Origin: Prorocentrum cordatum
Taxonomy: Eukaryota
Direction: 5' to 3'
Length of the DNA stretch: 64,000 bases
Assembly (NCBI GenBank): GCA_963575745.1
Contig: CAUYUJ010000270.1
Location: 124,001 to 188,000 of the forward strand
In this document: one piece after another, positions 1 through 50,370 of the stretch
Numbering within the stretch: the first letter of the stretch is position 1
Layout: every line of letters starts with the position of its first letter
The notes under the pieces: model-generated
What the model was told of the DNA's origin: nothing
The model's database searches: none
Seen by the model: only the letters and a program-made list of their open reading frames with translations
Translations under genes and position numbers: made by a program

Positions 1-519
1 GGCGCGCCATCTTGGCAGGCGGAAGCTTCGGCGCACGCACCTCTGGACTCGGACGAGGTGGAGGCGGAGGCTTCTTCGGCACGCGTTCCCTCTGCTCTGG
101 TGACGGTGCGTCCTTCGTCGGCGCGACGTTCGGCTTCGCGACCGGCGGCGGCGCCGTCGCATCGGGTGGCGAAGGTTTATTCGGCACCTCGCTTGCTGAT
201 CCAACTGGTGACGGCCCCTCCCTCGGGGGGGGAGGAGGCATATATACATTTTCGCAAGTGCATCGGCTTTGGGAAGTGGAGGCCACGCCTCCGCCACGGC
301 CTTGCCGGGCGGAGACTTGGGCGCTCTCCCAGCCTGGGAAACAGGCTGTCCCAAAGGTGGGAAATCTTCGGTGCCAAGCGAAAATGATGCGCCGGACGGC
401 TGAGCCGTCGGCTCCTGCTGCTGATCACCCGTCGACGATTTGGCTTTGGCCTCCTCTTCACTATCCCGGGCGAGCGTCTTGGGCGCCTCCGAAGCCTCGT
501 CTTTGTGCAACGGATTGAT

Positions 520-1370
520 CTTAGTGAGCCTGACTCCTTTCTTCTGGAGCCATGGCCAAATATCATCGAACTTACCATCGTTCTCAAAGTGAGGCTGCGA
601 TCTTTCTGCCGAACGATGGGCCCCAAATTTGGGGCCCACTGGCTCTGGGCCTCCCGGACTTGGTCCGCGGCGTCCTCCCTTGCTTTGGCGCGATATCGTT
701 CGACCCCGAAGTCTTGCTCCAAGGGCCATTCATTTTGTCGAGCGACATGTTGCAAGAAGACATAAGCATTCGTAACATGAAGCGCCGCAGGAGTCCAATG
801 GTAGAGGCGAAGCTCATACAATACCATCTCCAATGGTTCGCTGACGAACTGATCTGGGTTCCCCTTGATGATTGTGGGCTTTGAATAGAAAACGATCTCC
901 GCAGTTGCCCAGATGCCGTCTCCAAAAGTCTCTTCTGCAACAGAATATGTTGCATGAGTGGAAGGATTGTTGGTGCACGGAAAAGAATACACACCAACTT
1001 TATGCTGCTTGATACTCCCTCCATATTGAGGATTGGATGTAAGCAACTGACGGCTCTCCAAAATCGAATGGAGGGCGGTCGCGGACGTGCCGTGATTCCG
1101 TCTGGTCCAGCCTAAGGATGGGTCTTGGACCTCCCCAAGCTTTTCGTCCGTTACATAGAAGGGCAAAGTAAGCTGAACGCAGTGATTGATGCCCGCCCTG
1201 TGGGTCGTCGTTGACAACTTCGCCGAATTCAGGCGATCAGCAACAGTGAGCTTTGGGTCCGCACATGATCGATCGGCCTTAATCACAAAGAAACGTGCCC
1301 AATTGGGAACCACATAATTAGGTTCTAAGACTGGGGTCTTCGCGGGCTTCTGCAGCATCTGCAAGCCCAA
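520..1370 (-). pseudogene. Retrotransposon cargo: ADP-ribosyltransferase (PARP/ART-fold)-like domain
   Basis: ORF 177..1370 reads RNHGTS-ATALHSILESRQL...KVGVYS...HATYS...DQFV, resembling the H-G-T / G-x-Y / Y motif series of HYE-class ARTs. The frame shifts near 520 into a Pro-rich tail that leaves the window. Confidence 0.5.
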
Positions 1371-3580
1371 CCACGCCTCGCCATTTGCTTTCTTTGAATC
1401 ATGTTGAACTGTTTACTGCGAGCCGGGTTTTCCCCTTGTGCCACTCGTACAACGCGGCCTTCCTCCCCCAGGTACTCATTCATTGGCATCATGCGTCTAT
1501 AGAGCTCACCGCTCGCTACAGTGAATGGTCGGGGGAAATCGTAAGGAACTGGTTCCTTGTCGGACGCGATTTTGCAAGGCAGCTTCTGAATTTTCTGGCA
1601 TGCCAAATGCGCAGGCCAATCTTGTTCCCAGTCTTCAGGGCGATCAGGATCGCCACCTAACCTCAGGCGCCGCGGGAACTTAAACTTTTGGCTGAGCTTG
1701 GTTGCTTGGCCAACAGAGCATTTCATGCGGAGAGCTTCCTCCGCTGCTTCACCAAGTGCCTCAGCATCCTGAACGCCCTTTGCAGGGGCCAGAACGGGTC
1801 CGCGGGACGGCTGGGCCGCGCGCGCTACAGTAACATCACCCGAGGCGGCTGGGCCGCTCGGTGCAACAACAAGTGCTGCCTTCTTCAACTCATCAACTGC
1901 CGGGCGCATGCGCTCATCATTTTGCACCCCTTCGGTTGGCAATCGAAGGCGTTCCCCCCTTGGGGGCATTCCCGGACAACAGGGCTGACCACGCAGCAAG
2001 AAATAATAATCATCTTGCCACGGGAAAAAGTCTTTAGATGCATTCCCTCGCTTCAGAATATCAAAGAATGCAACGGAATAATTAAAGTGGATCGCCCCGC
2101 CCCCAGATCCGCCATGGACGGCCGGGAACTCAATGGGGTTCAAGGCTACTTTGAACGGGCGAGTATTAAGCACCGACTTGGGCACGTTGCCCTCTGCAGG
2201 GCTCCAGTCTTGACAGTGCCTGACTAGCTCATCAGCGGTGGCCTCCTCCAATGTATACCCATCGGATCTTTCGGCCCTTGTCTTCTTAGATGTGCCACCC
2301 CCCTGAACGGATGGGCCGCCGGAGGGTTGGCAAAAGAACAATGCGGCGAGATTAGCGGCCTTAAACATGTGCTCAGCGCGCAACTTGCCCGCTGGCACAC
2401 TCACCATTTGTCCATCCTTATCCATCTTATAGTCACTATGGTCAGACCAAAAGTGGTAAACATCCCCTGGGGGGTGCTGCAGTTTGCGGTAAAGGCTCGC
2501 ACCGTCAAGAATCATGATGCGCGGAACAATCCCCGCAGCTTTGTAGCTTTGAACTCGACGGTTCATTCGAGCCCGGACGAGGGTGGCAACGTCATCCCAC
2601 ATCTGGCTTACGCCGGCTCCAGCCGACCTCCAGCATTTGTGGTCCCCACCAACGTACCTGATCTCTACCGCTCCATCCTTTGTGCGAGCGATCGCGTCGT
2701 CCACAAGACCCTTCGCCGCTTCTATCAATATTCGGAGGGCCCCAGCAAACGCTGTTGGATTTTCTTGCCGCTTTGGCCCTGAGCCGACTCCGCTCAATTC
2801 GCCGGCTCCAGCAACAATATTATTGAAGTTCCAGAAGATAAAACGCACCGGCGTATGGATCCCTTTCTTGTAGTACTGATGCTCATTCCATGTGCGGTTC
2901 TTGGCCACTTCCCGCAGACCTGGGGCCATGCATCCACTCGTGATCTTCTGTGAAATGCCATGAACGTGGTCCTGCATATGGAACTGAGGGAGAAGACTGT
3001 TCGCGACCTTCTTGGACGCAATCCGGAACGAAATCGTGGAATCAGAGACAATATGGACAGACCATGACCAGAACATGTATGTCCCATGATCCATCAAGCA
3101 CAATGGGTGGAAAAAGTCCTTCACAGGCTTGTTTGTGGCCATCATGGCCGCAATGTCCTCGCCAACGAAAGGAACCCATGAATGCCCATTCGCGCGGGCA
3201 ATCTCAGTAATAGCCTGGCACTTCTGAAGGAACGACAACTTGAGTGCCCAAGCCTTCAACTGGGGATCTGTAACATCAACGTAAAGCTGAAGGATCTCGT
3301 TCACTTTAGATTCCCATTCATGCGACGGCGGCCTGGGGTTCGCAGCAAACTCTCCCTTCACCCGGTAATAGTCGAGTGCGCTCCAGGGGCCCCGCCCAAG
3401 GTAGGGCGGGTCACCCCCCTCGTAGCCCGACGTCGTCGACCCCGCATCGAGGCGTCCACCTCCACACCGCCCCCAAAGGGGGTGCCGGAAGGCGGGGCGC
3501 GCCCAGTGGGAGAGCCACCTGGGCCGGGCGGAGCACCTCCACCACCGGCTGGGCCGGGAGGAGAGCCTCCGCCCGCCCAA
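1325..3580 (-). pseudogene. Retrotransposon cargo: 751-aa segment containing an SGNH/GDSL hydrolase-like domain (~2440-3070)
   Basis: Four SGNH-like blocks in the correct order: HIVSDST (block I Ser), ITSG (II), FIFWNFNN (III), GDVYHF (V, DxxH). Confidence 0.55.
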
Positions 3581-5165
3581 CCACCGGCTTGGCCAGGTGG
3601 GGCAGTCGGATTCGAGGCTGACCCAGCGGATGATCCGCCGGCCGCCTGCCGACCAGTTCCAGGATTGCCCAATGACTTTAGTGGGCCAGATCCGGCCGAA
3701 GAATGCTCGATGGCAATGTTCGCACGGTGGCTTGCCGAACCGACTGGGTCGGTCGACATCCCCACTTCCAAGCGTGGCCTTTTCGGCGCCAGGTCGGGGC
3801 CCTCCTCTCTGCAGTCAGGAGGGCCCTCTGAGGGCGCCTCAGGGCGTCGCTGTTCGGGATCTTCAGGCACATTTGGCCTCTCTCCAGCAACGACTGGGTC
3901 GTGCTGGTTAGCCTCAGTCTCTGCGTCTGGCTGAGGGTGCTGCTTTTCTGCCAAGTCAGCACCGTCTTCAAGGCCGTCCTTCGCGAGCCATGCATCAAAG
4001 TCGCATGGGCGCGTCCACGAAGGTGCTGCCTTTCGCCAGGCCACGGCCTGTTGAGGGGAAGACTCAAAATAATTGGCTCTGGCTGGATCTGCGAGAGCCT
4101 CCTCAACAACATGCACTGGCGTGTAAGATGGGCCCTTGACAACAGGCAGGGCATATATCGCACCCCAACCATCCCCAGTGGCTTCGCCACGGGGAGGCGT
4201 GTGTGGCGAAGGGCCCCAAATGTTCATCCACAAAACGGGGGCACCTTCTGTCTTGTTGTCCCTTACTGGGGCGTTCACAAAGTCTCCGAAGACCGTCTTG
4301 CGCCCGATGGCTGGGCCAACAGTGGGACCCACGACCTTTCCCTTTTCAGGAGTTCGGACGGGGCGTCGAGTCCCCCCGGTGCGTTTGTGTACAACCTACA
4401 CACCAGCTTCGTCATTTCATCAGGGTACGACTGGAAAAAATACCTACAGGAATCTGGTCAAGTTTTGGAGGAGCACAATCAAAGCGGCACGTCGCCATTC
4501 TGTCGAATGTAGTCCAATGGACGATCCACGGGTCTTGTGAGACTTTGGAAAACAGACGCTCAAAGATCGTCTGGGAAGTGTCGGCTAGATCTGCCTTCAG
4601 TGCGGTAGCGACTGGGTCGTCCCGTTTGTGCAATGTATCATGTCTCCACATCGTGAAGCGCCAGCCCCATCCCCGTTTGCGTGCGAATTTAATGTCCCCG
4701 GCATAATCAGGCCGGGGCCATTCTTTCTGATCAGGAAAGCAACGGAAGATGGATCTCTCCTCGCGGGGCCATATGTCCCCTGCGAAGGGATGGCTGTCCT
4801 CTTGGCAGGCTTGCTGTCATCAATGGCAGCGTCGGCAGCTCTTTGGCGAGCTGCGATCTCTTCTGCGTGAATCTCTACGCCAGCCTCCATTTCGATGTCT
4901 ATATTCATCACGACATCGCTCGGACTAAAAGGATCAGCCGCTTTCCCAAGCGGCCTGGCCGGCGGGGCAGCATCCCCACTCAGCTGGGCCAGCGGGGTTG
5001 CCTTTCGAATTGGATTGGAAGGAGCCTTTCCTTTGGGCTCGATCGGGGGTTCTCCCTCCTCCGGTGACTCAGGAGCGAGTTCGTATATGATATCATCCGA
5101 GCAAATCGAAGTCACGTCCTCCCCCGACGGCTTGGCCGCTGAGGTTCCCATCGGTTGGCACATGA
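3358..5165 (-). pseudogene. Frameshifted N-terminal part of the cargo ORF, function unknown
   Basis: Overlapping protein-like minus-strand frames (C-terminal part of 4597..5835, then 4412..4651 and 3358..4332) link the methyltransferase to the SGNH segment through a Gly/Pro-rich linker. Confidence 0.5.
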
Positions 5166-5379
5166 GTTTGGTCGATGACCGATCGGGCGCGCGGGGGCCG
5201 CGGCAGGCAAGGCCCGCACAGCCGCAACAAGGCGGCCGCGCAGTCCGAGGGGGGGCCGGCCGCCAGGCAGCCCGCGCAAGCTCTGGAGACAAAACGGCAG
5301 CGGCACATGCGAAATCAGGGGATGGGACGAGACGACGATGAGGCGACAAGACGCGCTCCGCGGCGCGAGCAACACAAGT

Positions 5380-6020
5380 TTGAACCTGTTTGGCAAAGGC
5401 ATCCGTGTAATCTTCTGCTGACTTGCACTCCCGTCCTCTAGCCCCAACATGCTCGTGCGCGCCATCGCATCTGCGCTCAAGTCCCTCCGTCACGTCGGGA
5501 GACGTGGATGCAATCGCCCAGGGCTTTTTCATGAAATTTCCCTTGCTGTCCCTCAATCCGTGCGCACATCCATGCAAAGCCGTTTTGACAAACTCCAACT
5601 CTCTCATGAAATCTTTCACCTGGGGACCCCTCCAATAATTACACTGAGCTGGCCACTCAAGGCAAACGGCGCCCCCCGCTTTGTGCGCAGCACGGGCAAT
5701 CTCGCGGAAATTCCAAAATAGATATCTAAAGTCTGTCCTGATACCTCGAAGCCTACGCATCGCCCTATGGTTTCCAGCACGAAGAAAATGGGCTTCGTTC
5801 ACGCATTGCCAGGGGGAACCTCCGGTACAGGGCATAGAGCCCCATAACGTGATGTGCGTTTCCTTTGAACGTCTTTATGTCATTCAGAGCCAACCTTCGA
5901 CCTTCATCGGTTATCATATCTTCCTTCTCCGTGTACCGAATTACCTTACACGAATCGTCGGCAAAATTCTTGGGGTTTCCGATCCTGCTCCGAGGGCCAC
6001 AACAATATTCTAACAAGAGT
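5380..6020 (-). pseudogene. C5 cytosine DNA methyltransferase-like domain downstream of RNase H (frameshifted)
   Basis: LLLEYCCG (motif I-like, ORF 5765..6199), then PCTGGSPWQ (catalytic PC), CLEWP (motif VI-like), GCAHGL...KKPW and EDYTDAFA (ORF 4597..5835). Confidence 0.75.
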
Positions 6021-6417
6021 CGGTCCCCAGTCCCCTGGGTGGCCGGTGCACAGTCTTCCCGGATCCAGAATTCCGTCCAGCCGGTCCATCTACTTGGGTG
6101 AAAGTCGCCATCGCTGGAATCGCAATTCGAATACTGCTCAAAAGGGCGATGATATGTATTATCTTCGTCGCGCCAACTATCCGTACGGTCTATAGTCAAA
6201 CCATGTTGGGTATTGATGGCATAAGTCGGCGCCTATCATCTAATCTATCCGGGTCAACCGGGCAATCGGTAGTTGCTGGTATAAACGTGACAAGTCTGGG
6301 AACAAAGTACCATCGTTTAAGACTCTGTCCGTGTTGTGTCCACTGGCCCCTCCTATCCTGGATGTCAGCAACAGCAGCAGGCGGAAGGTGAGGAAGAAAA
6401 AGGTTGTATCCGAGCAT
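6021..6417 (-). pseudogene. Trp-rich linker module between RNase H and methyltransferase
   Basis: WTQHG..LKRWYFVPR..FIP...CPV followed by TDSW...WTGWTEF, split by a frameshift near 6197. Confidence 0.4.
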
Positions 6418-6439
6418 GTCTTGCTCGATGTTAACTGGC

Positions 6440-7649
6440 TCAACGCTCGATCGTTCTTCGCATCTCTTTTATCACATTCGATGTATCAGATTCGGTTCCA
6501 CTGTCGGTAACGTCAAACATCGCTCTCATCTCAATCTCTTTCATCGGCCTGGATTTGTCGGAGCTTTTCCTGGACCCTTCTTCGGTCGTAACAGGAGCGG
6601 TTGCATATGCTTCCACGGCTTGGCCGGGCGCACTCGCCTCCACAGCTCGGCCGGGGGCGTTCGCCACCACGGCTTGGCCGGGGGCAGCCTCGGTAGCAGC
6701 CGGGCGCTGGGCGCCGTCTGATGCCGCTGGGGTGTTTATTTGTTTTGAAGAATGCACAGCGGGCTTACCCTTGTTGGGGCGCGTCTTTTTCTTGTTCATC
6801 TTTTTGCTAGGTTCAACAACTCCTCTCCGCAAAGCCGAACTCGGACCTAAGCGGGGCTTCAGAACCCCCCCGGGTCTCAGGGGAAGTCCGTCTGAAAGCA
6901 TCGACTCCAAATAATCTCGGCACCGCTTGGCGGTCCAAAACTTGGGAGTCACAGCCTTGACAAGATATAGTACTGTAACCCAAGCAAAAGGGTCTGTGAA
7001 TCTCTTCGTTCCAATGTCGGCAGCTTCGTTTTGAATCCGTTCGCGCTGGAGCTCAACGATACCTCGAGGAAACTGTTCAGACACAGCTGCAGCATCTATG
7101 CGGTGAGTTCGCGGTAGGTGCATAGGCTTCATGGGCCCTCCAGCCTCAATGGCCTCACATGCCGCCTGGTTGTCCTCTAACAACAAACACCGCATCTCTC
7201 TTCCAAGCAATACTTCCCAAAGCGGAAAGGCTGCAAGCAGCTCTTTTCGCAGGGCAAGGCCGGCAGCCACAATCTCTGCCTCAGGGGTGCCATGGGAAAC
7301 GCATGTCTGTCGCTGCGACCCCGTAGACTGCCCGGCTCGAGCGCATGGGCCCCCAATGGCTTGATAACTGGCTCGTGCTCCTATGTGTTCGGATGTCACT
7401 GGCCAGGTCCGCGTCAGAGTATTGCTTCAACCAGACATCCTCCATCCTATCACCTACCCACGAAGACATGCGGTAATGAGAGGTACACTTGATGTAGCAA
7501 ATGAGGCGGAAGAGATCCATGTCTTGTTGCTCTGTCCATTTGGCAATGCAACTGGCCGCGTGGCGCGCGGCGCGGAGCAGGTCGTATCGAGCCATTCTCG
7601 CACCGTAAAAGATCTCCATCAAGACTTTCGCTGCGATGGGCTGGAGCAC
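6440..7649 (-). pseudogene. Copia RT C-terminus and RNase H (frameshifted)
   Basis: VLMEIFYGARMARYDL, YSDADLA...STS, TPEAEIVA, EDNQAA, HRID, ADIGTK: the Ty1/copia RNase H D-E-D-D series. Confidence 0.9.
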
Positions 7650-8955
7650 GCCCGACTGCGTCGGCGGCTCCGGGTCATTGGGCCGTGAACAAGAATGTCT
7701 TGATCTGGGGGCCCAACGTCAACTTTGATATGTAACGCGGAGGCGATTGCTTCCTCCGCAGGAGAGCAAACCTCACCTCTAAGGCCGCCTTGGCCACCCT
7801 CGAGATCGACGAGTTCTGGCCCGAACGGGGTACCCGCAGCGGGATAAGTAGACGGGTCAGTATCTGTGAGTTGTGCATATAAAGTGACACAGGATTCGAA
7901 GAACTCAGTCATGTCGTATTCTATGGCTCTGGCCTGTTTGGGTTCTCTTGGTTGGTATGGCTCGGGCGGCTGGGCCGCCGAGTCACCCCCGTTTCCTCCT
8001 CGCTACTCTCGTCTGGGACGGAGGCGTTCTTTTTGATTTTTGGAGGCGGCGGGTCCAAATCCAAAACCGCGAGCAACTCACCTTGCCACTCAACAAACTC
8101 CGTTGACAGTCTATGTTCACAACCCAAATATCGTCCGACCGCGGTCGGAGGGTCGATTTCTATGCCTTTCGGGCATTTGTCAGATGGGGTTTGTAGTAGC
8201 CTCCAACCTTCAGCTAGCTTGTCTGCAGGACCAGATAGCTTAAACTCGCCAACACAAATTATCAAGAACAGCCGCAGCTCTTTATGAAAATAGCAGCTGC
8301 GCCACGGGCTACATTTTACAAATCCTTTAGCCGTAACATGCCCTTCGCAGTGTTGCTCCCAATATCCCCCTGAATCAGGGTGTCCGTATAAAGATAAACT
8401 CAACGGGCATGCGGGATTGCGCATATGCGACCATTCCTTGGGCCACTCATCACGGGGTAGGAATATCCACGTCGGTGTGCCACCCAATGTTGACTGGGCG
8501 TAGGCCTGACGGGCGCTGGCTTGTTCAATACTATGGCCTTCGAAGAGCCCGTGAGTATCAGCTGCTTTGCTGGCCTGCATTGTCGCGGGACTGCTGGGCA
8601 GTTCTTGAAACAACGCAACATCCTTATTCTGATCTCTCACGCTCGAACCATCGAAAACGACCCGACCATTATATTTACGATATTTGCGTCCGAGTGGCAA
8701 CTCTGAGTTCTTCTCGACAAAGATTTCGAACAGGCGACCAAAGTGCGCCGTCTGTCCGTTACGTGCCGCAACAACATCGGAATATTCTCTATCCCCTTTA
8801 TCATTCCATGTGCGCATGTCTCGCAGCCTGTCCCATTCCTTTCTGAGAGCGGCCTGGGCATCTTGATTAGCCTTGGCCTCATCTTTGGAAACAGAGCGAG
8901 CTACAGCAGCATCAATCTTAGTATGTTGCCATTCGCTGGGAAGTTGGTAGGGCAC
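7619..8955 (-). pseudogene. Copia reverse transcriptase, catalytically decayed
   Basis: KEWDRL, KYNGRVVFDG, QASARQAYAQ, LSLYGHPDSG, RYLGC. The YVDD motif reads CVGE at ~8246-8257. Confidence 0.92.
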
Positions 8956-9853
8956 GTCAATAACCGAGATGGGATCAATAAAAAGTTTGTATAAGTAATC
9001 CTAATCGAATCTCTCCTTCTTACAGTGACTCGGCATTGGGGCCGAGCTGGCTTGCAACGGCATCCGAGGCACGCTTCGCCGCGACGCGGCGGCCGCCGGA
9101 CTCGAGGTCAGGCTTGCCTCTTGCGTCACCTCAGATTCATCATCGGATAACGGGCCCCTGCCGGCTGTGCCGGAGGGAACACCGCCGCGCGCTATGGCGC
9201 CACCGTGCCATGTTTGCTTCCACCAAACATCCTCATCATCCGAAAGCTATTGGTCGGAATCACCCTCTTCAGAGGATTCGGTAGCTACAGCTGCGGCTTG
9301 GCCGCCCTGTGCCGCCAGACGATGGAATCTCTCAGCAACCCACGGCGCGGCTAGTCTTGCCTTTGGATGCGCAGCAAGATAGGCAGCGGTCTCCTCAGAG
9401 ATAGGACGGACCGCAGGTCGCTGGGCCACTGCGGGCTCAGGCGGATTCGGTGGATCATCCACATCCGAGCCTATATCAGGCAGGAGGCCAAAACAAGGAC
9501 CAGGGTCGTCTATGCCAAAGAATCCTATCTTCTCGGCCTTGTATTGTTCGGCGGCCTGCCGGCTTTGAGCCTGATTCATGTTGAACCAACGTCCAGGACG
9601 AATTCCAAGATTGGTGGATTCAGGCAATTTCTTCAACCACTGAGCACCGTGCTTAGGATCTGGATCTGTGACCCACACGGGCTACTGGAACATAGTCGGG
9701 ATCATAATAGAGTACAACTCGTATGCTGCACGTCTTCCGACGGCCTGTCAACGGGAGCTTTTGTGTCAACTCCTCTTTCGTTAGACCAACGACAATACGC
9801 CTGCCCTCGAAGTGTTCCATAGTATCAAGGTTCTGTGTCGTGCGAGCAAGGAG

Positions 9854-11170
9854 CTACCCTTCCCCTGGAACTTTCTCGCGCGGCTTGGCCGCTGAGAAGT
9901 TAGATTGTCGATCCAAACGATGCTCAATGTGTGCGAGACCTAACTTTTGATATTTATCTTCGTCTGGGCGAGAGTCTCGCGGCGGATCTCGGCCGCCAAT
10001 CGCCGCAGGCACGTCATCCACGCACAACCCCCCCGGACCGTTATCCTCATCGGAATGGGCCTCGGAGCCCAGTGGTGGAGCGCCCTCGCCTTCATGAGGA
10101 AGCGGTGGCATAGTAATGGTGGGATCATCTGCGGCAAACAAATTGTCTGATCGTACTCCTGCCCTCTGCCGCGGACCGTCTGGGACGGCCGCGGCCTCTC
10201 CTGCGGGAGGGATCGTAACGGAACGCACCTCAGTCATTGCTTGCTCGTACGCTTTCCTCAGAGGAAACTGAGGCGACTGATCATCCGCAGTGCCGTCCAA
10301 GATGTTGCTGTATACTTGATCGGGCTTTTCTATGGTGGGTCTATTGCCCTCGGGCGTGCGCCCTGATTCCATGTTAAGTCCATCCAGTTGTCTGAGCGGC
10401 ACAACGTAGCTCTCTGGGCCAACCATGCCCCCCGCTTTGTGCAGATACCCCAAGTATATCCCAGGGATCATTGTTCCGCCAGTCTTGGCTGTCCGGAATC
10501 TTGACTCTGGTGGGGGCACATAGCGTACGAGAGACCCGAAGGGGAGAAGCGGCGCCTCAAACATGTGTCCAAAGCGACGTTCCCAACTAGATTTCCCCTC
10601 CTCAGGGGTCCTGGCATTGTATCAAAGACAAAAGTATCGGACGGCATACGTCCAATGTGGTGGGAGACCAGCCTGCATGAGCAGCGCTCGGGTCCCCATC
10701 TCTACCACGCCATTCGCACGTTCGGCAACGGCATTTTGTGTGTTGTTCCCTGGGAGGGTAGGATCATGGGCAATCTTGAGCTCGTAACGTGCCCTTGCAA
10801 GCTCGCGTGCACCATCTGTATAACAATGCTCTAACTTCTCACCCGGGGCCTTGAGGTTTACTAAAAAGCAACAAACATGAACCGCAGACTTGTCGTGCAC
10901 ACCCTGAGCGGCGAGGAAATCCGCTGCTCGGTCGCGAAAAGTCACGCACGCGGTCTCATCGTGGAGCCCCCGCGAGAGTTCATCCATCGCAAACCAATGG
11001 TCCATCGTCGTCAGGTGTCCACACGAAGTGGGGTTAGCTTATGGGCGGGGAACCTTCAGCCCTTTGTTGCGCGCTTTACGCTACTGTCTTCTGATAGCTT
11101 TGGCCCAATTGCATACTGAACAACATGGGTTCTTGGGGGTGTGAGTTAGAAGATGCGGCAGGGGGGCTGC
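9854..11170 (-). pseudogene. Copia integrase (HHCC finger, DDE core, C-terminal part), frameshifted
   Basis: HLLTHTPKNPCCSVC; TMDHW...YTDGARE...NAVAERANG; AGLPPHWTYA; PFGSLVRY...GIYLGY. Confidence 0.92.
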
Positions 11171-11789
11171 TGCCTTTTTGAGCCGCTCGGCAAGGGAGCT
11201 CGACACCTCAACCTCTGCATCATCTGGGTCTAGTTCTGGCGGTGCGTCGACGTCGACTAGGTCGACAGCGCCAGCGTCTCCAACATCACCCTCCTCGGGC
11301 CCGGGGGCCGCGTCGCACGCATTGGAGTCCAACCCTTGATCCATGTCATAGGGAAGGTATCCTGAGACCCCGTGCCAACAAGGGCTCTTATATGCGGCTG
11401 CGCAGGCCACGGCTTTGCCCGGCTGCTCGTCAGTCCGACCAACGGCTTGGCCGTGGCAGGGCAAAGTCGAGAGACATCTGGAGGCAGCAATGCCGGTCGG
11501 TGTCCGATTCCCACCACTTTCGCTAGCCTTACGAGGCGAATGGTAGAAATAAGTGATGGTATCCGCAGAGTCTAATGAAGACGGAAAAACGAGCGCGAAC
11601 TCAGTCGGCCGTCCGTCAACGTAGTTGTGGTTGCCAATCAACTCATGTGTATGCAGGTCTATGGTCGCGCGAGTCTGAACAGCATGGGGCGGAGGGCCTC
11701 CCGCTGATCCCACATTGCCCAGAAATGCCTCGGCGCCTGGCGTCACGCAACACCACCGCTCGGGAGGTTCACCCTCCCCAGCGGCAACC

Positions 11790-12343
11790 GCGCACATCCA
11801 CTGACCCAGCGCCTCTTTGCCTGAAAGGGTCAAGTATGGGATCTTGCCCTCAACGATCAGGTCCACTCTTTGACCGTTGGGCAACAATAGGTAGGGCCTT
11901 TGGCCTGCTGGCCAGAAGAAACAAAAGCCGCGATCCATGAACCGCTCTCCTACCGAAATCACGCACGGGGTCTCCGGCATGACTAAAGCGTTAAAACTAC
12001 CACCCTTGAACTTAGGGCATGCGATGCGAACTGAGCCGAGGGCTTTTGACTCTCCCCCGGCAGTATTCAGAATGATCGATTGCGGAAGCTTTCGAATCAA
12101 TCTCATCGCACCTGCACTTTTAATATACTTCTCCGCTATGAGGTTATACCCACACCCTGTTTCAATAATAAAGCTCAGCGCTCCAAGATACGCAGCATTC
12201 TTGTCTGCGCATCCCGCAGCGGCTGTGCCGCGTGGGCCCTCTTCCCCCTCCTCAGGCCTCAAACAAAGGTGCCAGGCGTCATCTTGGACGTCTGAGGCCC
12301 TGATCAGGGCCTCCGCAGCAGACGCTCTCGACTGAGTAGACAT
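11790..12343 (-). pseudogene. Retrotransposon aspartic protease (DTG motif reads ETG)
   Basis: FIIETGCGYNLI...LNTAGG...TPCVISVG...GFCFFW in ORF 11081..12343, in frame with the integrase zinc finger. Confidence 0.8.
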
Positions 12344-12921
12344 CTGTCGGCGTATTTATCCTGGGAACTTCCACCTGTCTTTGTCACTTGAGGGCAACTC
12401 TTTCAGGTCGTGGCGACGCGCCTTCCTGCAAGTGATGGCGGGCTCCGCAGTCGATGGGTGCAATCAAACGCGGAATTGGCACCGACCCTTCATCTGAGAT
12501 CGACTGCAACTCTTACTAGGGGCGTCGCTCCAGTACATCTTGATAGCGCCCCGAGAAAGAGGACACAGGAAATTTGCAAGGATATTTACAAGATTCTCAA
12601 CTTGCCTCCTGCATTCGTCGTGAAACTCTCCACTGGCGGGATTCCTGTCAACTCTCCCCCACCAGAATTTAAGGGGGCCTTTGAAAAAAAGGGGCCGGCC
12701 TGCTTCTGCCCAGGAAGGCCCCGAGCTAACGGAGCGGGGCGCGCTATTGCACCCAAGCTGACTTGGTCAGTGGATACCTTCCCCCCCCCCCGCTTTCGGT
12801 TTGACCGACGCGGGCGTCGCCGCGCCCGTCGAGCGAGGAAGATAGGACAGAGTACCCTTAATCAAATTATGCCAATCAGTCTTCCAGCGCTGGCGGCTGG
12901 GCCGCCAGTGCGGAGCCAATG

Positions 12922-14733
12922 TCACGGATGGCCAGTCGTGGTCTTGGCAAACCAACAATCTTTACCACGCGTGCATTTGCCTGTTTCTTTGAAAAGGTGA
13001 GAAATCATGTCTTTGCCTTTGCCTCTGCCCTTGTTCTTGTCTCCGTCTTTTCTGCGTTTCTCTGAACTGTTACTGGAGGCCCTGGAGCCACCATCACCCG
13101 CAGTTGAGGAGACATTGACAGCCGCGGCATTGGCTCGTTTAACTGTTCGCTCATATCCCAGAGACTGTCCCGCGTCAAGCTTCGCTTGTTCATACTTGTC
13201 GCGCTTGAGCTTCTCTGCATCGGTCAAGCCTCTGTGTTGCTTGTCGCAACCGTCTAAAAGCCCACGGCAATTCTTGGGGCCCCGCGAATAAGCATAACAT
13301 GGCAGCGAACTCTCTTTTCCGCGCGAACGGTTGGATTGACTCCTGTTCCGCTGCTGCGCTCCATTTCCACGGCCACCCGTCGGAGTCTGCGATCGGCTCT
13401 GCCCCTTTCGGCCTCGGCCGTCGGGTTTCTCAGATCTCCCTCTGGGATTCTTGTTCTGAGCTGGGGCAGCATTTGACTTGGTTCCCGCAGCCGGCTGGGC
13501 CGGTGCGGCAGCTTTGGGCTTCTTATGATTAAATGGGCATCCCTCACCTGCATTCGGGCAAATCTGGCACTTACGTGCAAACTTGCACGTCGTCTCGCCC
13601 TTAGTCAATTCGCTCTTCATAACATCCGAGGGTTTCCCGCGACGGGCTGCCACTTCTGCCAGGGCGGCTTTGCCGTTGGCATATCGACGATTGTCATTGC
13701 CATTGCCTCCACTTCCGCCTATTCGTGCCTGTCGAGCACGTTGATTCAGAGCGCCCTCATGCATGCTGGTGTTCCATTCTTCCTTGTCGCGCAACTTCAT
13801 TCCTTCAATCTGGGACATGAGCCATTCGTAGGACCTCACGCCTTCTCCTAACTTATCTTTGGACAAGTCGTAAAGTTGACACACGAAATCTAACTTCTTC
13901 GGCTTCCTGCATTGTTCGATGAAGTGTGCACGGATCGAAGCTCGCATCTCATCAGATGGAGGTCGGACGCCGCAGAGCTGCTGGTAAACGCCTGTCCATT
14001 CATCATAGAAATGAGATAAGTCAGCATCTGGCTTACTGGGGTCAATAACTACCTTGAAGATATCACGCGAAATGCGATGTTGACCCAACTCCGATCTGTC
14101 GGAACACCAATGACAAATGGCTCGTATCATCTCGCGCCCCGTTAAGAGCCTCTCCTCATTCTGGGCGCCATACTCCATTCGACTGATCTGTTGAAGGAAG
14201 TGCATGTGATGATTGGACAGATTACGATTCCTACGCATCTTGGTGAACTTATCAATCAAATTTGCTGCGATCATGATGTCAAGACGCCTGAAGCGACCTG
14301 GGTGTCTGAGCTGTTCGTTTTCTACAGCAGGGGCCATAGTTTCCATGATCCAACGCTGTGCTGCTTGAATCTCAGGAGATGATCCAGCAATAGCTCGGAC
14401 TGCATGCATCTGCCACTCCCGTATGTTTGTAACATCAGGAATGTCCATCAGATCAACCTTCTGATTGTTTCCAACCTGTCTCCACTGGTCCAAAGGGGTA
14501 CTCTCATCAAGGCCTCCCGGGTCATGTGGCCCTCCTGGGCCCTGAGGTCCGCCGCGACCACCTCCACCGCCTGGGGATCCAGGCCCCCCCGGGCCCCCCT
14601 GGGGGCGGCTTCTCTGGCCGGTCGCGGATGGCATCATTAAGTGCCGACAGAATCTCAGTACTCGGTGCGATACTACTGTCATCCCCATCCTTGTCCTGTC
14701 CTTCCCCGCCCGGCGGCGTTGCCGCTGGCGCAT
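12922..14733 (-). pseudogene. Gag core with C-terminal Cys/His (CCCH-like) fingers
   Basis: 603-aa ORF directly upstream of PR. A helical core (LDIMIAANL...LLTGREMI) is followed by CKF..CQICP...CPFNH, CYAY...C...C..QH and a third degenerate finger. Confidence 0.8.
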
Positions 14734-17570
14734 GGTCTTGATTTCCGCCAGACGGCTGGGCCGCCGGCGGTCTCACAGGCCCGCCCTTAGAGAATGAATG
14801 ATAGTTGACAAAAGTCGCGTCGTCACTGACACCTGTGAAATTCATATTGATAGGCAAACGATTCTCGGAGGCACTCGGCTTGGCCGGACCTTCGATTGCA
14901 GGGCCAGGAACAGTACAATTGGATCGCCTGACGAGCCTTACAGGCGTTTCATGTGAAAGCAAAGGTATATCAAATGAACTAGAATTGGGCAATGCATCCT
15001 GCTCCTTCTCCCAATATGGGAAGGACTTGGTGGTGATGGCCTTGAGCTTCATCACTTCTCTCTCCGATGCAACTTCGCGGGCCGGGGCCTCACCCTTCTC
15101 CCGCATGTTGACAGCTGCCCGTCTGAGCCCAGTCTAATCTGCTTATCAGCTTGCTCCTTCATTCGCTGAACATTGAGTTTATCAGCGCTGCATTCGTCCA
15201 GAAGCTTTTGCTGTTGAGCTCGAAAGTCACGATCAGCGCTGCGTTTTCGCCGCTGCTCGCCCCGCTTCTCCTGTTCTGCTGGCAAACTCTTCATTTGAGT
15301 GCATGTAGAACACCGCCTGGTGCTCGCATTGAACTGGTCTTTGCAGCTTGGCAGTCCACAAGCGGCGCATTCCCCTTCTTTCGGGTTGAAGCAAATCGAG
15401 CAACTTTCTCCATCATCCCATCTCGCGGGCTATGGCTGCGGCGCAGCCCTTACTTTCAGCATCGGCGGCATCGCGCCCCCCATGGTCGTCAAGCCAGACT
15501 GGGCCTGCGAAGACGCTGCGCCGGACGGCTGGGCCGCTGGCGACGGTCGTCTACTCGCCCCAGCCGGCTTGGCCGGTGGGCACGCATCTTCGCTTAACTG
15601 CATGCGCTGAAGAGATGCCCTGGCGTTCTCATGTAACTTGAGCTCTTCGCGATATTGATTATTATGATCGACTATCGTCGCAGCTACAATCTGGGCATTG
15701 CCCACTTCCAACCTGGCAGTTTGCAGTTGATCTTGGAGCTCCTTTTTTTCTTGTTCTGCCTGGCTGTAGCGACCCTCTTTCCTTTTATTCTCGCCGCCGC
15801 AACAGCGGCGGATGCGATCGCGGCATCAACAGGTTGACTGGTCACCGTCGCAACGGTCTGTCGTTCGGAGGCTATCATCTCAGCATATATGTTCTTGGCT
15901 TCTTCTTCCGCGCGCTGTTTGGCAGCCGCGGTCTGATGGGGCATGTGCCCCGCCAGCTCTTGTTCCCGATCTCTGGCAGCTCAAGCCAGAGCGAGTCTTT
16001 CAGCCTCGAACGTCTTCCGAACGCCCTCAGGGACTGCACTCATCTCTTCTCGGTCCAGTCGGGCCTTCTCGGTCCTCTGGGCTTCACGGCCCAGGAATTA
16101 TTGCCGAGTTTTGGCCTCAACAAACTTAGCCTGGTCCTGTGAATGAAAAGGTACGGGCAACTATGCTCTTCCATCGGAATGCAATCCTCACGCAACCACT
16201 GATTGCTACAATTGGGGCACACGTCTGAGCAATTCCTACATACTGGGCGCCTACAAGCTCCATTCGGTCTGCGGGCTTTCCCCGGGCATCTGTTCTCCGC
16301 CTGGGGCGGGCAGTTGGAGCCCCAGTTCCAGCATGTCTCGCGCATGGATATAGTACTGTTGCTCCTCGAAACGGATCGAGCTCCAGATCTTGGCATCTTG
16401 GGCCTTCCTCTGCTCGAAGCATTCGATCTGGGACGTGCGTGCGTACTCTCTGGCGGTCTAGCCGCCTCTCGAAGCTCCTCATCCCTTTCATCTTTTCTAA
16501 TCAACTCATTCAGCGAAGCCGGGGGGGTGATCATTCCATCGTCCTCAACTACAACGGGTATCGACGGTTGCCAATCGCCTGCGGCGACGGCAGTCCGATG
16601 GAATCCTTCCTGAAGCGGGGAATCGTTCAAGTCATAAGATTCATTCCTTTGCTTCTTGAGTTGGGATCTCCCGGCCATGCTTCGCATGAGTCTGAAAACC
16701 CATTTCCGCCTCATCCGCCTGGGGCGGCAGGTCACTTATCTCGGTATCCGAATCTGGTTCTGCCAACGCTTTCCCAAGGGCTTCCACGTGATCGTAGTCA
16801 ATTGTATCCTGCCCAGGGGACCACCTCTCGTCTTGGACGGGGTGGTCTGCGTCAGTTATCGAAGACAAATCTCGGCCCAATGATACTTGATAGTCGGCGT
16901 AACCAATGTCTTCCTCCATGGAATTTATGTCGTCTCCATCATCAAGCTGTTCATCACTATCTTGGCCGGTTTGCCCATTCAAGGCTGTAGGGATAGGATG
17001 AGTCCCGTGAGCGTTCCCCCATCCGTCTGGGACGGTGGGGCACACACCTCTGGACCCATCGGCTTCTCCCGACCCACTGGCTTGGCCAGCGGCCGGCACA
17101 ATAGTCCGCATAGCAATCGGGCTGGAATGTATTGTCTCCGAAGATTCGGCAACCAATGACGAAAATGCTCCTCGTCTAATTTTTGCTGTTGTGCCGTCCC
17201 GTCTCTTCGGGTCTGGGGTCTGTTCACGATCACCGATCGGGACTCGAGAGGGAGAATCGTCTCTTGACACATCAATAACCTTTCCCCTACTCCTTCCGCG
17301 AGAGACCCGAGTGGTGATAGAAGAAACGGGAAGGCGGCCCCTCCCCGGGCCGCTCTCCTGTAGTCCTTGCCCGTCACGTTGTAAAACTTGGGATCCAACG
17401 GGCAATTCGGCTGTCTCATCATAGCTCATCCCTGTTGCGACTTGGTCGCGGGTTTCGGCCAATAACCAGTCTTTCCTCTGAGAATCGGGGTAAGATGACA
17501 AAGGAACTGAGGTATCGTGATGACTCTGCTCAATAGTAGAGGATACGGGATGAGACATCGATGAAACCAC
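14522..17570 (-). pseudogene. Very long frameshifted Gag N-terminal extension (disordered, Cys-rich finger, coiled coil)
   Basis: Chain of overlapping minus-strand ORFs: 16641..17570, 16040..16735 (with CRRPVCRNCSDVCPNC...C...H.C), 15684..15944, 15430..15711, 15052..15294 and 14522..15106. Confidence 0.6.
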
Positions 17571-18859
17571 AAGTAACCGTTAAGCAACTGTACTCAGGAA
17601 TGGGAAGTGAGGAGGCCAGCAGGGCGACGACACGACAACGACGAGGGAACGACCCCTCGGCGCGCGCGTGCAAGCCCGCACGTTCCTTTTCTATCCTGTG
17701 AGCGCAGACAGCTGCGGTACACTGCCGCAGAGTCAAGGTGTGGCAAGGCAGGCAGCAAGAGAGGCAAGCGCAGTAAGAGGCGGAGAGGAGCATATTTACT
17801 TGGAAGGCGGGCCGTTCCCTGAATGGATCTCTCGCTTAGCTCCAGACACATCCATCTCAAGAGTGCTCTCAACGTTCACACAAGGGCGGATGGGAGCATT
17901 TTCAAAATGGCGCTCTCGCGCTAGCGCCGTGCACACTCGCCTTAAAAGTGTTAATGGTCACGCAAGGACGGTGTTCCCCCGCAGAGAACAGCGGCAGCAG
18001 CAAGATAAGATATAAGTCCGCTGCCCGTCGTGGGGATTATCCCACGTCACACTCAAGCCGACTCAGCCCAAGCACCCGCAAAGGCCGACAGGACGCAGTT
18101 TAAAATGGTGCTCTCGCACGGGTGTCAGGTACACAGGGTGCTTGTAGCAAACATGAAACATTAGAGGGACTTATGGCGAGAGGGGGGGGCGTATGACCAG
18201 GGGGTGTATCGCAGCATCTTCGACGCATCTTGGGTTTACTGTGGTCCTCCTTCCTCGTCCTCCCCCCCCTCCTCATCCTTCCCGCGAGGTCGCACGAGCT
18301 GGCAGCGCTGGGTGGGGGGTGGGGGGGCGGGGCAGACCACGTCCTTCGCCGAGGATTCCGCGGCCTGACGGCGGCGGGACGCTTGCTGGAAGGAAGGGGG
18401 GGCGGCGAATGCCAGACAGAGCGATCAGCGCACCGCCTTGGGGAAGGCTGGAGCGCGGGCGGTGACGCCCGATGTCTGGAGCTACAGCGCTGGGATCAGG
18501 TGCCACTGCGAACGAGCTGGGCAGCGACAGCTACAGCTCGGAAGAATTTGGAAGCCTGGTGTTAGGCATGGGTTTCGTTGGCCCCGTTTAGCATCCTCGT
18601 TTGCCCTTCGGAGGTTTATCCTGTAGAAGCCTACTCCTACATCCATATATTACATGTCTTGATTTGTCCCCACGAGCCCCGACCCTTTCCTCAGGTCTGG
18701 CTTTCATCCTGAATCGATGTCTGACGGCCGGGGGGCCCGGCGAGGCCCCCCAGAGGGCGAAAACAAGGAAAAACCTCCGTCCTGATTTTACTCAGGACGT
18801 TGGATGTCTGGGCTCCTCAACCCTCACACCTCACCCTCCATGACTGGAGAAACACAAAC

Positions 18860-19026
18860 GGCACAACCATACACTTTCGAGGCTCCGCGCAAATTTCTCG
18901 GATCGGTGCTGGACCCCCTTCCCTAGCGCGCGAAGCGCGCCACAGGAGTCGCCGGAGGGACCGCCAAGGGGGCCCAGCGCCGATCCGAGAAATCCGCGCG
19001 GAAAGACGGACATGCATGGTGATGCC
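18860..19026. repeat. Imperfect inverted repeat (MITE-like foldback)
   Basis: ccgcgc..atttctcggatcggtgctggaccccctt (~18885-18920) pairs with aagggggcccagcgccgatccgagaaatccgcgcgg (~18966-19001). Outer ggcacaaccat / atggtgatgcc also pair. Confidence 0.7.
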
Positions 19027-19899
19027 ACTTTTTCTTGTTCGAATTCGGCCGCGGGATGCCGCCCCGCTGAGCGCGCCCGAGTCGTGAGCAAGGACCGACC
19101 TTCCCGGCATCTCTACAGGCCTACAACGACATGTTTTTGGAACAACAGGCTGCCCCATGAACAAAGCAATGCTCTTATAACCCCAAACCGATTGATTAAA
19201 AATGCTGCCTCAGCCAGACATGTTATCTGATTACACTCCTCGCCCGTCGCCTCGAGAGGTTGCACAATCTATGCTTGCAACTGAGCAGGGGAGGCGGGTC
19301 GGGCAAACGATGCCTCAGTCTCTATGCCCTAGACTTTTCCTAGACGAGGGCCATGAAAACTGCTTCCGCTGCTTCGTTTTCCAGTAAAGATGCTTTGGCT
19401 GATGTGTTGTGCGTTTTGGCCATGTCAACGTTTTGGTGCCCCTGTCCGGCGGGCCCCCCAGGGCGATTCCTGACTGGGCCTGGGCGGGGGCGACGCCCTG
19501 AGAAAAGAAGCATGAATGCCCTGCGATCGTCGCCCGCGGATCTTCCTACCATGCTCCACCCACTGAAGCGCGGGCGGAGTCTGCGCCGAGGGCAGGCGGA
19601 ACGAAACATGGAGGGGCAGGGCCAAGGTTGACTCCCCCTCGAGAAATTGGCCACTGTACTTTGTTATGTCCTGCCTGGTGCAAAACACAGCGTGTGATTA
19701 GAACATGAGTTGGTGTGCTTATCCGCCACCGTGCGAGGCACGAGTTGGAGTGTCCTCAGGTCCTTCGCCTCATCCCTTAAGCCTGAATCCCCGATCCTTG
19801 AAAATTCTTTCAAGCGCCCATGCCCCACATTGTCCAAATCTCCTGGGGCGCGCCACGTGGCCCTTGGGACTCCCTGCGGTTTCTCGCGTAACTCTTGCG

Positions 19900-20065
19900 G
19901 ACCGAAGAGGGCCCCAAGACGGAGGAGGCTGCCCAGACGGTCCAAGAGGGCCCCAAATCAACGCACGACCTGTCCAACACGCTCTACATGGCCCCAAGGC
20001 GGCCCAAGAAGGCTTCGAGGCGCCCCAAGAGCCCCGAAAGTTTTCCAAGAGGGTCCCAAGAGGCA
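19900..20065 (+). repeat. CCCAAG-rich degenerate tandem repeat (also ~21440-21505, 23890-24145, 34535-34790, 41300-41435)
   Basis: Recurrent (g)cccaaga(g) units, about 10-11 bp apart where tightly tandem, on the + strand at five loci. Confidence 0.75.
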
Positions 20066-20309
20066 ATTCATGGATCCCCCGTACAATGTGTAATGATTTT
20101 CCCATCCATCCTGTGGTGTTCGGTGCTCGTTTTGAAGAGACAGCGCCCCGCGTCACACCTCCTCCCGCTGCCCCCTCCCTCCTCCCCCTCCTCCCTCCTC
20201 CCGTCCGCCTCGGCATTGCCATCGTCATCGTCATCATCGTCATCATCATCATCGCCGTCATCATGATACACATCAGCATGATCATCACCATCGCCATCGT
20301 CAGCGCCGC

Positions 20310-21235
20310 GCCCTTCACACGGTTCGTGGCACCATAGGGAGCTCCACCGAAGGCCAAAGTGGCAGCGGTTGCATGCGTCACGGCCGCCCCATGCTGGCAC
20401 ATCCCTCACACGGTTCGTGGCCCCATAGGGAGCTCCACCGAAGGCCCCAGCAAGAGCGTCCGCATGGCACCACCGCTTCATTTCGGCACACCCCTCACAC
20501 GGATCCTGGCCCCATAGAGAGCTCCACCGAAGGCCCCAGCGGGAGCGTCCGCATGGCACCGCCGCTTCATTTTTTCACACCCCTCACACGGATCCTGGCC
20601 CCATGAGGAGCCCACCGAAGGCCCCAGCGGGAGAGTCCGCATGGCACCGCCGCCCCATTGAGGCACACACCTCATACAATTTGTAACTAAAACTCCACCA
20701 ACAACTCCAGCGGGAGCGTCCACCTAACACCGCCAAACCATTTTGGAACACCCCTCACACGGTTCGTGGCCCCATAGGGAGCTCCACCGAAGGCCCCCGC
20801 GGGAGAGTCCGCCTTGCACCGCCGTCACATCTGGCACACCCTTTACGCGGTTCGTGGCCCCATAGGGAGCTGGCCCCAGCGGGAACGTCCGCATGGCACC
20901 GCCGCACCATTTTGGCACACCCCTCACACGGGTCGTGGCTTCATAAGGAGCTCCACCGAAGCGGGAGCGTCCGCACGGCACTGCCGCCCAATTTTGGCAC
21001 ATCCCTCACATGGTTCGTGGCCCCATAGGGAGCTCCACCGAAGGCCCCAGCAAGAGCGTCCGCATGGCACCACCGCTTCATTTCGGCACACCCCTCACAC
21101 GGGTCGCGGCCCCATAGGGAGCTCCACCGAAGGCTCCTGTGGGAAAGTTCGCATGGCACCGCCGCCCCATTTCGGCACACCCCTCACACGGTTCGTGGCC
21201 CCACAGGGGGAGCTCCACGGAAGACCCCACTGTCG
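20310..21235. repeat. ~89-bp tandem satellite, about 10 units
   Basis: Unit ccctcacacggttcgtggccccatagggagctccaccgaaggccccagcgggagcgtccgcatggcaccgccgc recurs at ~20403, 20492, 20582, 20752, 20921, 21003, 21092, 21181. Confidence 0.95.
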
Positions 21236-49499: not shown

Positions 49500-49537
<38 letters not shown>

Positions 49538-49549
49538 CAACACAGACTG

Positions 49550-50370
49550 CACCACATCGGGCCCCGACAATCCTCTGGCCTCGCGGCCTGGGCCCGACGA
49601 CGGCGACGACGACGGTCAACGATCGCCTAGGCTCGATCCTCGATCCTTGGATTGTGGACCCAAGGTCCTCGAGTCCAACTTGAGCGGTCCTCGGATCTAG
49701 GATCCGCGAAGCTCGAAAACGCTCGGATCCAAGATCGAGGGTCATCGCTCCGAGGATCGAGGATCGGGCCTCGTCGATGGCGGGCCTGGTGATGGTGACG
49801 AGAACGATCGACGACCGCCGAGGCTCGATCCTCGATCCTCGGATCGAGGTCCCCAGATCGTTCAGTCAAAACTGAGAAATCCTCGGGTCAAATACCCGAG
49901 GTGCTCGAAGAAGCTCGATCAACGAGCTCAGAGATCCTCGGATCAAAGATCGCGGATCCTCGATCCGAGAATCAAGGATCGAGCCTCGTAGATGGCGGTC
50001 TGGGCCCCGTGATGGCGACGAGGGCGATCGACGACGGCCGAGGCCCGGTCCGCGATCTACGAATCGAGGATCCTCTATTTTGGACCCAAGCTGGGCGATT
50101 CTCGGGTCGAGGACTCACGGTGCTCGAAGACGCTTGGATGCAAGATGCAGGATAATTGATGCAAGGGTCGAGGATCGAGCCTCGTTGATGGCGGCCTGGG
50201 CTCGACGACGGCGACGGGCGCGATCGTAGATCGCCAAGGCTCGATCCTCGATCCTCGGATCGGGGGCCCAAGATTCTCGCGCCCAAGCTGGGCGGCGCTC
50301 GAAGATGCCCGGATGCGAGATAGATGAGCGTCGATGCGAGGATCGAGGATTGAGCACCGTCGATGGCGCG
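49550..50370. repeat. GATC/TCGA-dense degenerate repeat cluster
   Basis: Recurrent ggctcgatcctcgatcctcggatcg and its reverse complement gaggatcgaggatcg. Confidence 0.8.

Follow-up and report, generated by a model that had tools for sequence, protein, structure and literature searches.

The first 17.5 kb of a 64,000-nucleotide stretch of Prorocentrum cordatum DNA (GenBank assembly GCA_963575745.1, contig CAUYUJ010000270.1, positions 124,001–188,000 of the forward strand; hereafter the window) hold what is, judging from its open reading frames (ORFs), a decayed, truncated copy (at least 17.5 kb) of an abundant Ty1/copia-like retrotransposon family. The long ORFs of the first 17.6 kb lie on the minus strand, which we designate the coding strand, and the copy carries an array of short hairpins with 3-nucleotide (nt) loops and a strongly preferred orientation. 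We tentatively propose that these hairpins are a selected, family-specific signal acting on a single strand, in which many binding sites for a protein of the element may serve to capture and condense the element's own RNA.

A hairpin was defined as a perfect stem of at least 4 bp with a 3-nt loop, and positions 1–17600 were counted as the element region. The window contains 18 exact matches to CGGCTKGGCCG, all 18 on the plus strand and 16 of them within 1–17.6 kb, against a chance level of 0.53 ± 0.80 (maximum 4; 0 of 100 dinucleotide shuffles reached 18). The original prediction, made from the sequence without database searches, had listed these 16 sites together with two stray copies outside the element at 56546 and 61035, and all are exact matches. 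The variants that it described at 396 (TGA loop), 4308, 4951 (CTG loop), and 17077, and the 8-bp stem at 12890–12908, are also present. The array that it reported is real, but its count of about 19 hairpins was too low. When any perfect 4-bp stem is allowed, the plus strand of the element region has 40 hairpins with a TGG (22) or TTG (18) loop and the opposite strand has just 3, in line with the strand polarity that had been noticed. In 300 dinucleotide shuffles of the region, the number of such hairpins was 2.72 ± 1.68 (maximum 8). A second null of 300 synonymous-codon shuffles within ORF segments (a greedy choice covering 16644 of 17700 bases) yielded 3.09 ± 1.62 (maximum 8), compared with 36 observed inside the segments; the array thus withstands both of the shuffle checks proposed for it. 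The ORF-internal hairpins occupy all three codon phases (17/6/13), which confirms that they are not a peptide repeat, and the flanks of the motif copies are unrelated, so the motif is not part of a longer repeat. In the other 46 kb of the window (100 shuffles), the two strands have 8 and 8 hairpins with these loops versus 6.6 and 8.3 after shuffling, that is, the chance level expected if the array is confined to the element, as claimed. Taken together, the 40 versus 3 orientation and the independence from coding argue for a signal that is read on single-stranded nucleic acid.

The 40 hairpins, which extend from 655 to 17449 with a mean spacing of 430 nt, and two variants are as follows (plus-strand letters; minus denotes the element strand).

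655–667, minus, hairpin CGGAC-TTG-GTCCG
1121–1131, minus, hairpin GGTC-TTG-GACC
1808–1818, minus, hairpin CGGC-TGG-GCCG
1845–1857, minus, hairpin GCGGC-TGG-GCCGC
1956–1966, minus, hairpin CCCC-TTG-GGGG
2464–2474, minus, hairpin CCCC-TGG-GGGG
3545–3557, minus, hairpin CCGGC-TGG-GCCGG
3739–3753, minus, hairpin ACCGAC-TGG-GTCGGT
3890–3902, minus, hairpin ACGAC-TGG-GTCGT
4308–4318, minus, hairpin TGGC-TGG-GCCA
4609–4619, minus, hairpin CGAC-TGG-GTCG
5128–5138, minus, hairpin CGGC-TTG-GCCG
6616–6626, minus, hairpin CGGC-TTG-GCCG
6670–6680, minus, hairpin CGGC-TTG-GCCG
6703–6715, minus, hairpin GGCGC-TGG-GCGCC
6922–6934, minus, hairpin ACCGC-TTG-GCGGT
7557–7567, minus, hairpin CGCG-TGG-CGCG, closing pair G-C
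7965–7979, minus, hairpin GGCGGC-TGG-GCCGCC
8010–8020, minus, hairpin CGTC-TGG-GACG
8590–8602, minus, hairpin ACTGC-TGG-GCAGT
9293–9305, minus, hairpin GCGGC-TTG-GCCGC
9561–9571, minus, hairpin GGCT-TTG-AGCC
9880–9892, minus, hairpin GCGGC-TTG-GCCGC
10176–10188, minus, hairpin CCGTC-TGG-GACGG
11442–11454, minus, hairpin ACGGC-TTG-GCCGT
12407–12417, minus, hairpin GTCG-TGG-CGAC
12758–12770, minus, hairpin CTGAC-TTG-GTCAG
12796–12808, minus, hairpin TCGGT-TTG-ACCGA
12890–12908, minus, hairpin with the longest stem (8 bp), CTGGCGGC-TGG-GCCGCCAG
13491–13503, minus, hairpin CCGGC-TGG-GCCGG
14753–14763, minus, hairpin CGGC-TGG-GCCG
14876–14886, minus, hairpin CGGC-TTG-GCCG
15526–15536, minus, hairpin CGGC-TGG-GCCG
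15564–15576, minus, hairpin CCGGC-TTG-GCCGG
16297–16309, minus, hairpin CCGCC-TGG-GGCGG
16715–16727, minus, hairpin CCGCC-TGG-GGCGG
16829–16839, minus, hairpin CGTC-TTG-GACG
17023–17035, minus, hairpin CCGTC-TGG-GACGG
17077–17089, minus, hairpin CTGGC-TTG-GCCAG
17437–17449, minus, hairpin GCGAC-TTG-GTCGC, the last before the copy ends
396–408, minus, variant hairpin ACGGC-TGA-GCCGT, loop one letter off
4951–4961, minus, variant hairpin CGGC-CTG-GCCG

On the coding strand, the consensus is C (32/40), G (34/40), N, C (36/40), loop CMA, then G, N', C, G. The loop reads CCA in 22 hairpins and CAA in 18, which agrees with the C(C/A)A loop predicted for the element RNA; its 3' base is A, and the closing pair is C-G in 36 of the 40. 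Stems are mostly short (4 bp in 17 hairpins, 5 bp in 20, 6 bp in 2, and 8 bp in 1). The stem co-variation among copies that the prediction described is present but mainly at one pair, N, where the 40 hairpins have G22, C7, A6, and T5 and where free covariation is concentrated. The flanks on the coding strand are C-rich on the 5' side and G-rich on the 3' side, and longer imperfect stems are possible. The 10 motif hairpins in blocks aligned with the closest related locus (L001) are ungapped and therefore arose by substitution rather than insertion. Hairpins as frame-breaking insertions or bypass elements were ruled out, most of them being inside long ORFs and ungapped versus L001. Rfam covariance models gave no hairpin match at E ≤ 1 in positions 1–20000. 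All triloop hairpins together are also in excess in the element region (164 versus 74.8 ± 8.8 in dinucleotide shuffles, and 75–87 across shuffle types). Apart from the 40 hairpins with a CMA loop, about 124 triloop hairpins with many different loops are left in 1–17700, where about 74 are expected; these could be array members that are older or have decayed.

Arrays of this kind, with other loop letters, are common among the relatives. We examined 80 metagenome loci with an alignment of the reverse transcriptase (RT), the best of 463 confirmed relatives, and shuffled the 55 loci of at least 3 kb, the other 25 being shorter and left out. A strong array, defined as z ≥ 7 for the surplus of triloop hairpins with no such surplus of tetraloops, was found in 15 of the 55, with tetraloops at expectation and mostly a C-G closing pair; L071 alone has 200 triloop hairpins in 12 kb. 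The main coding-strand loops of the relatives are as follows.

L001: TCA (19), also CCA (5) and CAA (4)
L045, L046, L049, L058, L061: TTC, TCC, TGC
L064, L067, L068, L071, L080: TCC, ACC, CCC, GCC
L052, L056: TTT, ATT, TCT, ACT
L021, L022, L047: NAT
L048, L051, L055: TCG

In an RT tree from a quick IQ-TREE search, the window element groups with L001 (support 99) and the loop sets follow the RT subclades, although some members, such as L070, have no array. The lineage-specific loops suggest element-specific readers rather than a single host factor.

Several relatives differ in other ways. Tetraloop excess occurs in some other loci, such as L011, which has the GNRA loops GTGA (7), GAAA (5), and GTAA (4) at z 5.2. 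L066 has no triloop excess and has repeated pentaloop hairpins, TCAGT (5) and TAAGT (4), which may be another loop class. L067 (439–1311) groups with L064 and L068 early in the RT alignment, but over the final ~190 columns it hardly differs from L071; recombination between lineages or a chimeric contig may be the cause. L001 has ~310 extra bases (10124–10434) in its RT region compared with the window element, between two collinear blocks, which may be an intron or an insertion.

Comparison of related lineages with 70–73% nucleotide identity revealed that hairpins persist at exact positions. L052 and L071 have 19 of 60 positions in common versus 0.9 expected, and the corresponding fractions are 19/55 for L052 and L064, 18/57 for L064 and L071, and 9/45 for L045 and L071. 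Some pairs at the shared sites changed on both sides between those lineages. A covariation test used an RT alignment of 17 rows in which 18 hairpins are shared, the tested structure being derived from the same rows; 34 cells were changed on both sides, compared with 16.8 ± 3.2 in shuffled alignments (0 of 500 reached 34) and 10–23 in slid controls. The covariation score was 0.117 versus 0.091 when shuffled and 0.061–0.075 in the slid controls. The loops also changed at shared sites: at 10 of the 19 sites of L052 and L071, L052 has T as the third loop base where L071 has C, with 0 in the reverse direction and a background of 233:193, and the shifts between L052 and L064 are likewise one-directional, 7:0 for the third loop base and 6:0 for the second. 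These one-directional changes indicate that loop identity shifts in concert.

Near-hairpins provide information on the strand that acts. We took sequences with the loop motif of the lineage at the centre and one mismatch among the three pairs beside the closing pair, pooled from the window element and 19 loci. On the coding strand, the mismatches are G·U in 177 cases, A·C in 66, and other in 175, whereas the background shares are 17%, 15%, and 67%; the G·U excess is significant (binomial p = 1e-32), and A·C is not raised. By lineage, the G·U:A·C ratio is 19:2 in L071, 11:0 in L080, 31:10 in L052, 19:1 in L051, L055, and L048 together, and 8:0 among the inner mismatches of L001 (p = 2e-4). As read from these sequences, the wobble bias points to coding-strand RNA in several lineages. 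The stem-loops of L051 are clearly more stable on the coding strand. Folding of the window element in context predicted a mean pair probability of 0.72 (median 0.93) for the coding-strand RNA compared with 0.49 for the opposite strand. For the window element, we lean toward coding-strand RNA as the acting strand.

Based on these data, we propose that point substitutions would have introduced about 40 copies of an 11-nt stem-loop, CGNC-CMA-GN'CG, with copies in every ORF and roughly one per 430 nt. Each hairpin would be a modest binding site for a nucleic-acid-binding protein encoded by the element, and the candidate reader would be the gag-like protein with CCCH-type fingers (described below). 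Acting together, many such sites might enable this protein to recognize and compact the element's own very long RNA in a cell that also contains RNAs of many other retroelement families, in the manner of the dispersed packaging signals of single-stranded RNA viruses. The Gag packaging or condensation role suggested in the original prediction is thus a reasonable reading. If signal and reader change together, loop identity would differ between related lineages, as is the case in the relatives. A wider version of this proposal, which we consider possible but doubtful, is that each giant dinoflagellate copia-like family carries, across all its genes, a private code of dozens to hundreds of small hairpins read by its own capsid or nucleic-acid-binding protein, with loops switching in concert at lineage splits, and that the code serves to distinguish self from non-self RNA in packaging.

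Several observations weigh against a selected RNA signal, in this element or in general. Some concern the array: (i) no regular spacing was found among the hairpins, whose coefficient of variation is 0.86 versus 0.96, that is, random-like; (ii) the window element shares only 2 of 56 triloop and 0 of 10 motif hairpin positions with L001, where the chance level is 3%, and individual sites are labile, what persists being the array itself; (iii) among copies that are 86–98% alike, divergence is 30–40% lower within hairpins, an effect for which ascertainment alone could suffice; (iv) close copies have few compensated pairs and yield G·U and A·C products in similar numbers, as in neutral decay; and (v) the RT covariation backs selection for structure moderately, the structure having been taken from the same rows and the controls not being probabilities. 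Others concern the strand: (vi) relatives with TNC loops have a wobble ratio of ~1:1 and thus no coding-strand bias; (vii) the inner mismatches of the window element (G·U 4, A·C 1, other 10) are not significant; (viii) at its first unpaired position beyond the stem, A·C (13) outnumbers G·U (7; other 20); and (ix) its stem-loop energies, computed under constraint, are equal on both strands.

Among the alternatives, the hairpins could engage a host factor, either as a decoy or shield against a loop-specific deaminase or a triloop-reading decay factor, or by recruiting factors for export or stability. The shift from NNC to NNT described above for L052 relative to L071 (10:0) and L064 (7:0 and 6:0) has the one direction that deamination of a loop C would leave, and APOBEC3A favors triloops on stable stems whose 3'-terminal loop base is C (PMC7952602); relatives with NNC and NNT loops fit this preference better than the window element does. 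We nevertheless regard this explanation as unlikely: in the window element, the last loop base is A instead of C; loops that vary between lineages would not be expected from one host reader; and a deaminase cannot create stems.

The hairpins could instead act on the minus-strand complementary DNA (cDNA), in which the loops are TGG and TTG, as pause, strand-transfer, or second-strand start points on a long template. The A·C surplus beyond the stems of the window element corresponds to G·T on the minus strand, and the equal energies on both strands are compatible with a role in cDNA. The TNC loops of the relatives with a ~1:1 wobble ratio read GNA on the opposite strand, and C-GNA-G mini-hairpins of DNA are unusually stable. 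By contrast, the clade-pooled wobble favors the coding strand (177 versus 66), as do the inner mismatches of L001, the stability of the L051 stem-loops, and the context folding of the window element, and we judge a function in cDNA to be improbable.

The hairpins might also be a mutational by-product without function, if near-palindromes are perfected by palindrome correction or template switching when the element is reverse transcribed or replicated. The fast turnover of hairpin positions, the neutral decay of the copies, and the excess of all triloop hairpins (164 versus 75–87) rather than of the CMA class alone would be expected from such a process. This account is nonetheless quite improbable, in that 40 independent sites agree in loop class, closing pair, and orientation, the loops are lineage-specific, and the coding-strand G·U bias of the clade contrasts with the nearly symmetric G·U and A·C decay among copies. 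Finally, a double-strand DNA protein-binding site, which the original prediction had offered as an alternative, and an artefact of composition or codon use are both scarcely credible. The motif is nearly palindromic and each of its ends has a CpG, but a palindromic duplex site would not give 40 versus 3 in orientation, and dinucleotide and synonymous-codon shuffles both leave ~3 hairpins.

The element that carries the array was characterized from its ORFs and its collinearity with L001, which has a gag-like ORF, protease, integrase, RT, RNase H, and a next ORF in the same arrangement, at 30–72% amino acid identity. Its parts are as follows.

1–17506, minus, decayed, truncated copy of a giant Ty1/copia-like retrotransposon, running off the window start (ORFs, collinearity with L001)
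14525–17579, minus, ORFs upstream of the gag-like ORF, some cysteine-rich (translation; 16148–16396 with 35% identity to L001)
12925–14772, minus, gag-like ORF with CCCH-type Cys/His clusters (translation; 30% identity to L001)
11084–12355, minus, protease-region ORF ending in an H..H..C..C integrase-type finger (translation; 42% identity to L001)
9857–11038, minus, integrase-region ORFs (56–58% identity to L001)
7924–9000, minus, RT ORF (52 homologues)
6443–7426, minus, RNase H region ORF (45–72% identity to L001)
180–5874, minus, extra ORFs downstream of RNase H at 4600–5874, 3361–4395, 1328–3814, and 180–1412 (translation)

The order gag–protease–integrase–RT–RNase H fits the translations (the H..H..C..C finger is upstream of RT), the collinearity with L001, and the homologue consensus; there is no Pfam match for integrase or protease. 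At the Pfam cut-off used for window ORFs (E ≤ 0.01), none of the ORFs of the element, RT included, has a match, and the gag-like ORF has a weak zf_CCCH_4 hint (E 0.043) that falls below this cut-off. The RT ORF matches 52 proteins (E 1e-111 to 3e-28), 20 of which carry PF07727 (RVT_2) and three of which are from Symbiodinium natans. The RNase H ORF has no Pfam match and nothing useful in a search of PDB sequences. For the extra ORFs past RNase H, we found no Pfam family and no usable Atlas lead, and homologue searches gave 2 short matches and 0 matches. The large ORFs beyond the usual gag-pol set (180–5874 and 14525–17579, minus strand) thus have no Pfam family and almost no homologues, and at least 2 of them are common to L001.

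Decay of the copy is evident at several positions. The integrase region is split by a stop at 11039–11041 that is private to the window copy, all related contigs differing at 11039. The YVDD box of RT, as given by the homologue consensus, reads CVGE in the window copy, and RT has a frameshift at about 7985, after which most contigs have an extra C (depth 1359/1769). The family is abundant in run X1, with 12070 matching contigs that cover 30 of 30 bins, 946 of them at a likeness of at least 99%. Among the 40 listed of 5036 contig differences, none is inside a hairpin, where about 1 is expected. The original prediction spoke of a whole copia element, which is not confirmed: the copy runs off the window start, 9 run X1 contigs diverge from the window sequence at 17506, and a search for long terminal repeats (LTRs) found no direct repeat of the element within 1–22000 or the rest of the window and no second copy in the window. 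With the copy extending past the window start at one end and parting from the contigs at 17506 at the other, the LTRs may lie outside the window or be lost.

The remainder of the window has further repeats. Just outside the element, 89-bp tandem repeats form two blocks (20287–21292) with a conserved 41-nt core in 10 copies. A long palindromic hairpin at 18890–18996 matches MIR5387, a model of a plant miRNA precursor, on both strands; its score of 33 bits falls well short of the gathering threshold (69), and it is probably a mere inverted repeat. An ORF at 56541–57353 (plus strand) has 28–30% identity to the region upstream of RT in the copia-like loci L077, L069, and L065; by this likeness, the ORF belongs to a fragment of another copia-like element, unrelated to the first and lying on the opposite strand. 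The stray CGGCTGGGCCG copy at 56546 is at the start of this ORF. Positions 48001–52000 and 56001–60000 have many 4-bp hairpins with ATAT or TATA "loops" (10 + 9 and 7 + 8), which are probably palindromic repeats rich in AT dinucleotides.

To our knowledge, the way in which an LTR retrotransposon chooses its own RNA for packaging is understood in few models, where the signals are at the 5' end. If our proposal is true, a code of tens to hundreds of hairpins over the coding sequence, with lineage-specific loops, would be a new form of RNA marking by mobile elements, through which each family, despite the many competitors in the genome, would restrict packaging to its own very long RNA. It would also provide a test case for a second code superimposed on genes, for the co-evolution of signal and reader, and for the handling of retroelement RNAs of more than 15 kb. 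The motif is short and defined, which makes binding and probing work direct.

Small loops on short stems of nearly any sequence are read in other systems. The Roquin constitutive decay element and the Smaug recognition element are bound by readers of triloops or pentaloops; unlike the array, these elements are single or few sites in the 3' untranslated regions of host mRNAs. The short stable stems with 3-nt loops in which the 3' loop base matters also resemble the triloop substrates of APOBEC3A (PMC7952602), and among the relatives NNC loops are common, with one lineage having NNT at the same sites. Those substrates are mutational hotspots in human DNA rather than a selected array, and the loops of the window element end in A. 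Ty1 is itself of the Ty1/copia type, and its Gag selects genomic RNA via RNA structure; its packaging and dimerization signals are reported to be in the 5' terminal region (PMC5454406, PMC6844567), whereas the hairpin motif is spread over the whole element RNA in ~40 copies. In a literature search, we found no account of hairpin arrays scattered through retrotransposons, and the main text of a paper on Symbiodinium copia elements (PMC5776459) makes no mention of hairpins, stem-loops, secondary structure, palindromes, or packaging. The closest likeness is to single-stranded RNA viruses, for which multiple dispersed packaging signals are described in MS2 and others (Twarock et al. 2018, PMC6281560) and in a 2026 bioRxiv preprint on SARS-CoV-2. 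As these accounts have it, such viruses also carry many short stem-loops through coding sequence with a shared short motif and the rest variable, and the sites are individually weak and redundant, a property to which the array may be likened. The array differs in belonging to a retrotransposon and in its C-G-closed triloop and largely fixed stem CGNC. What the present case adds is the triloop class with a nearly fixed stem, the frequent occurrence in the clade of arrays with other loop letters, and the finding that loops shift in concert.

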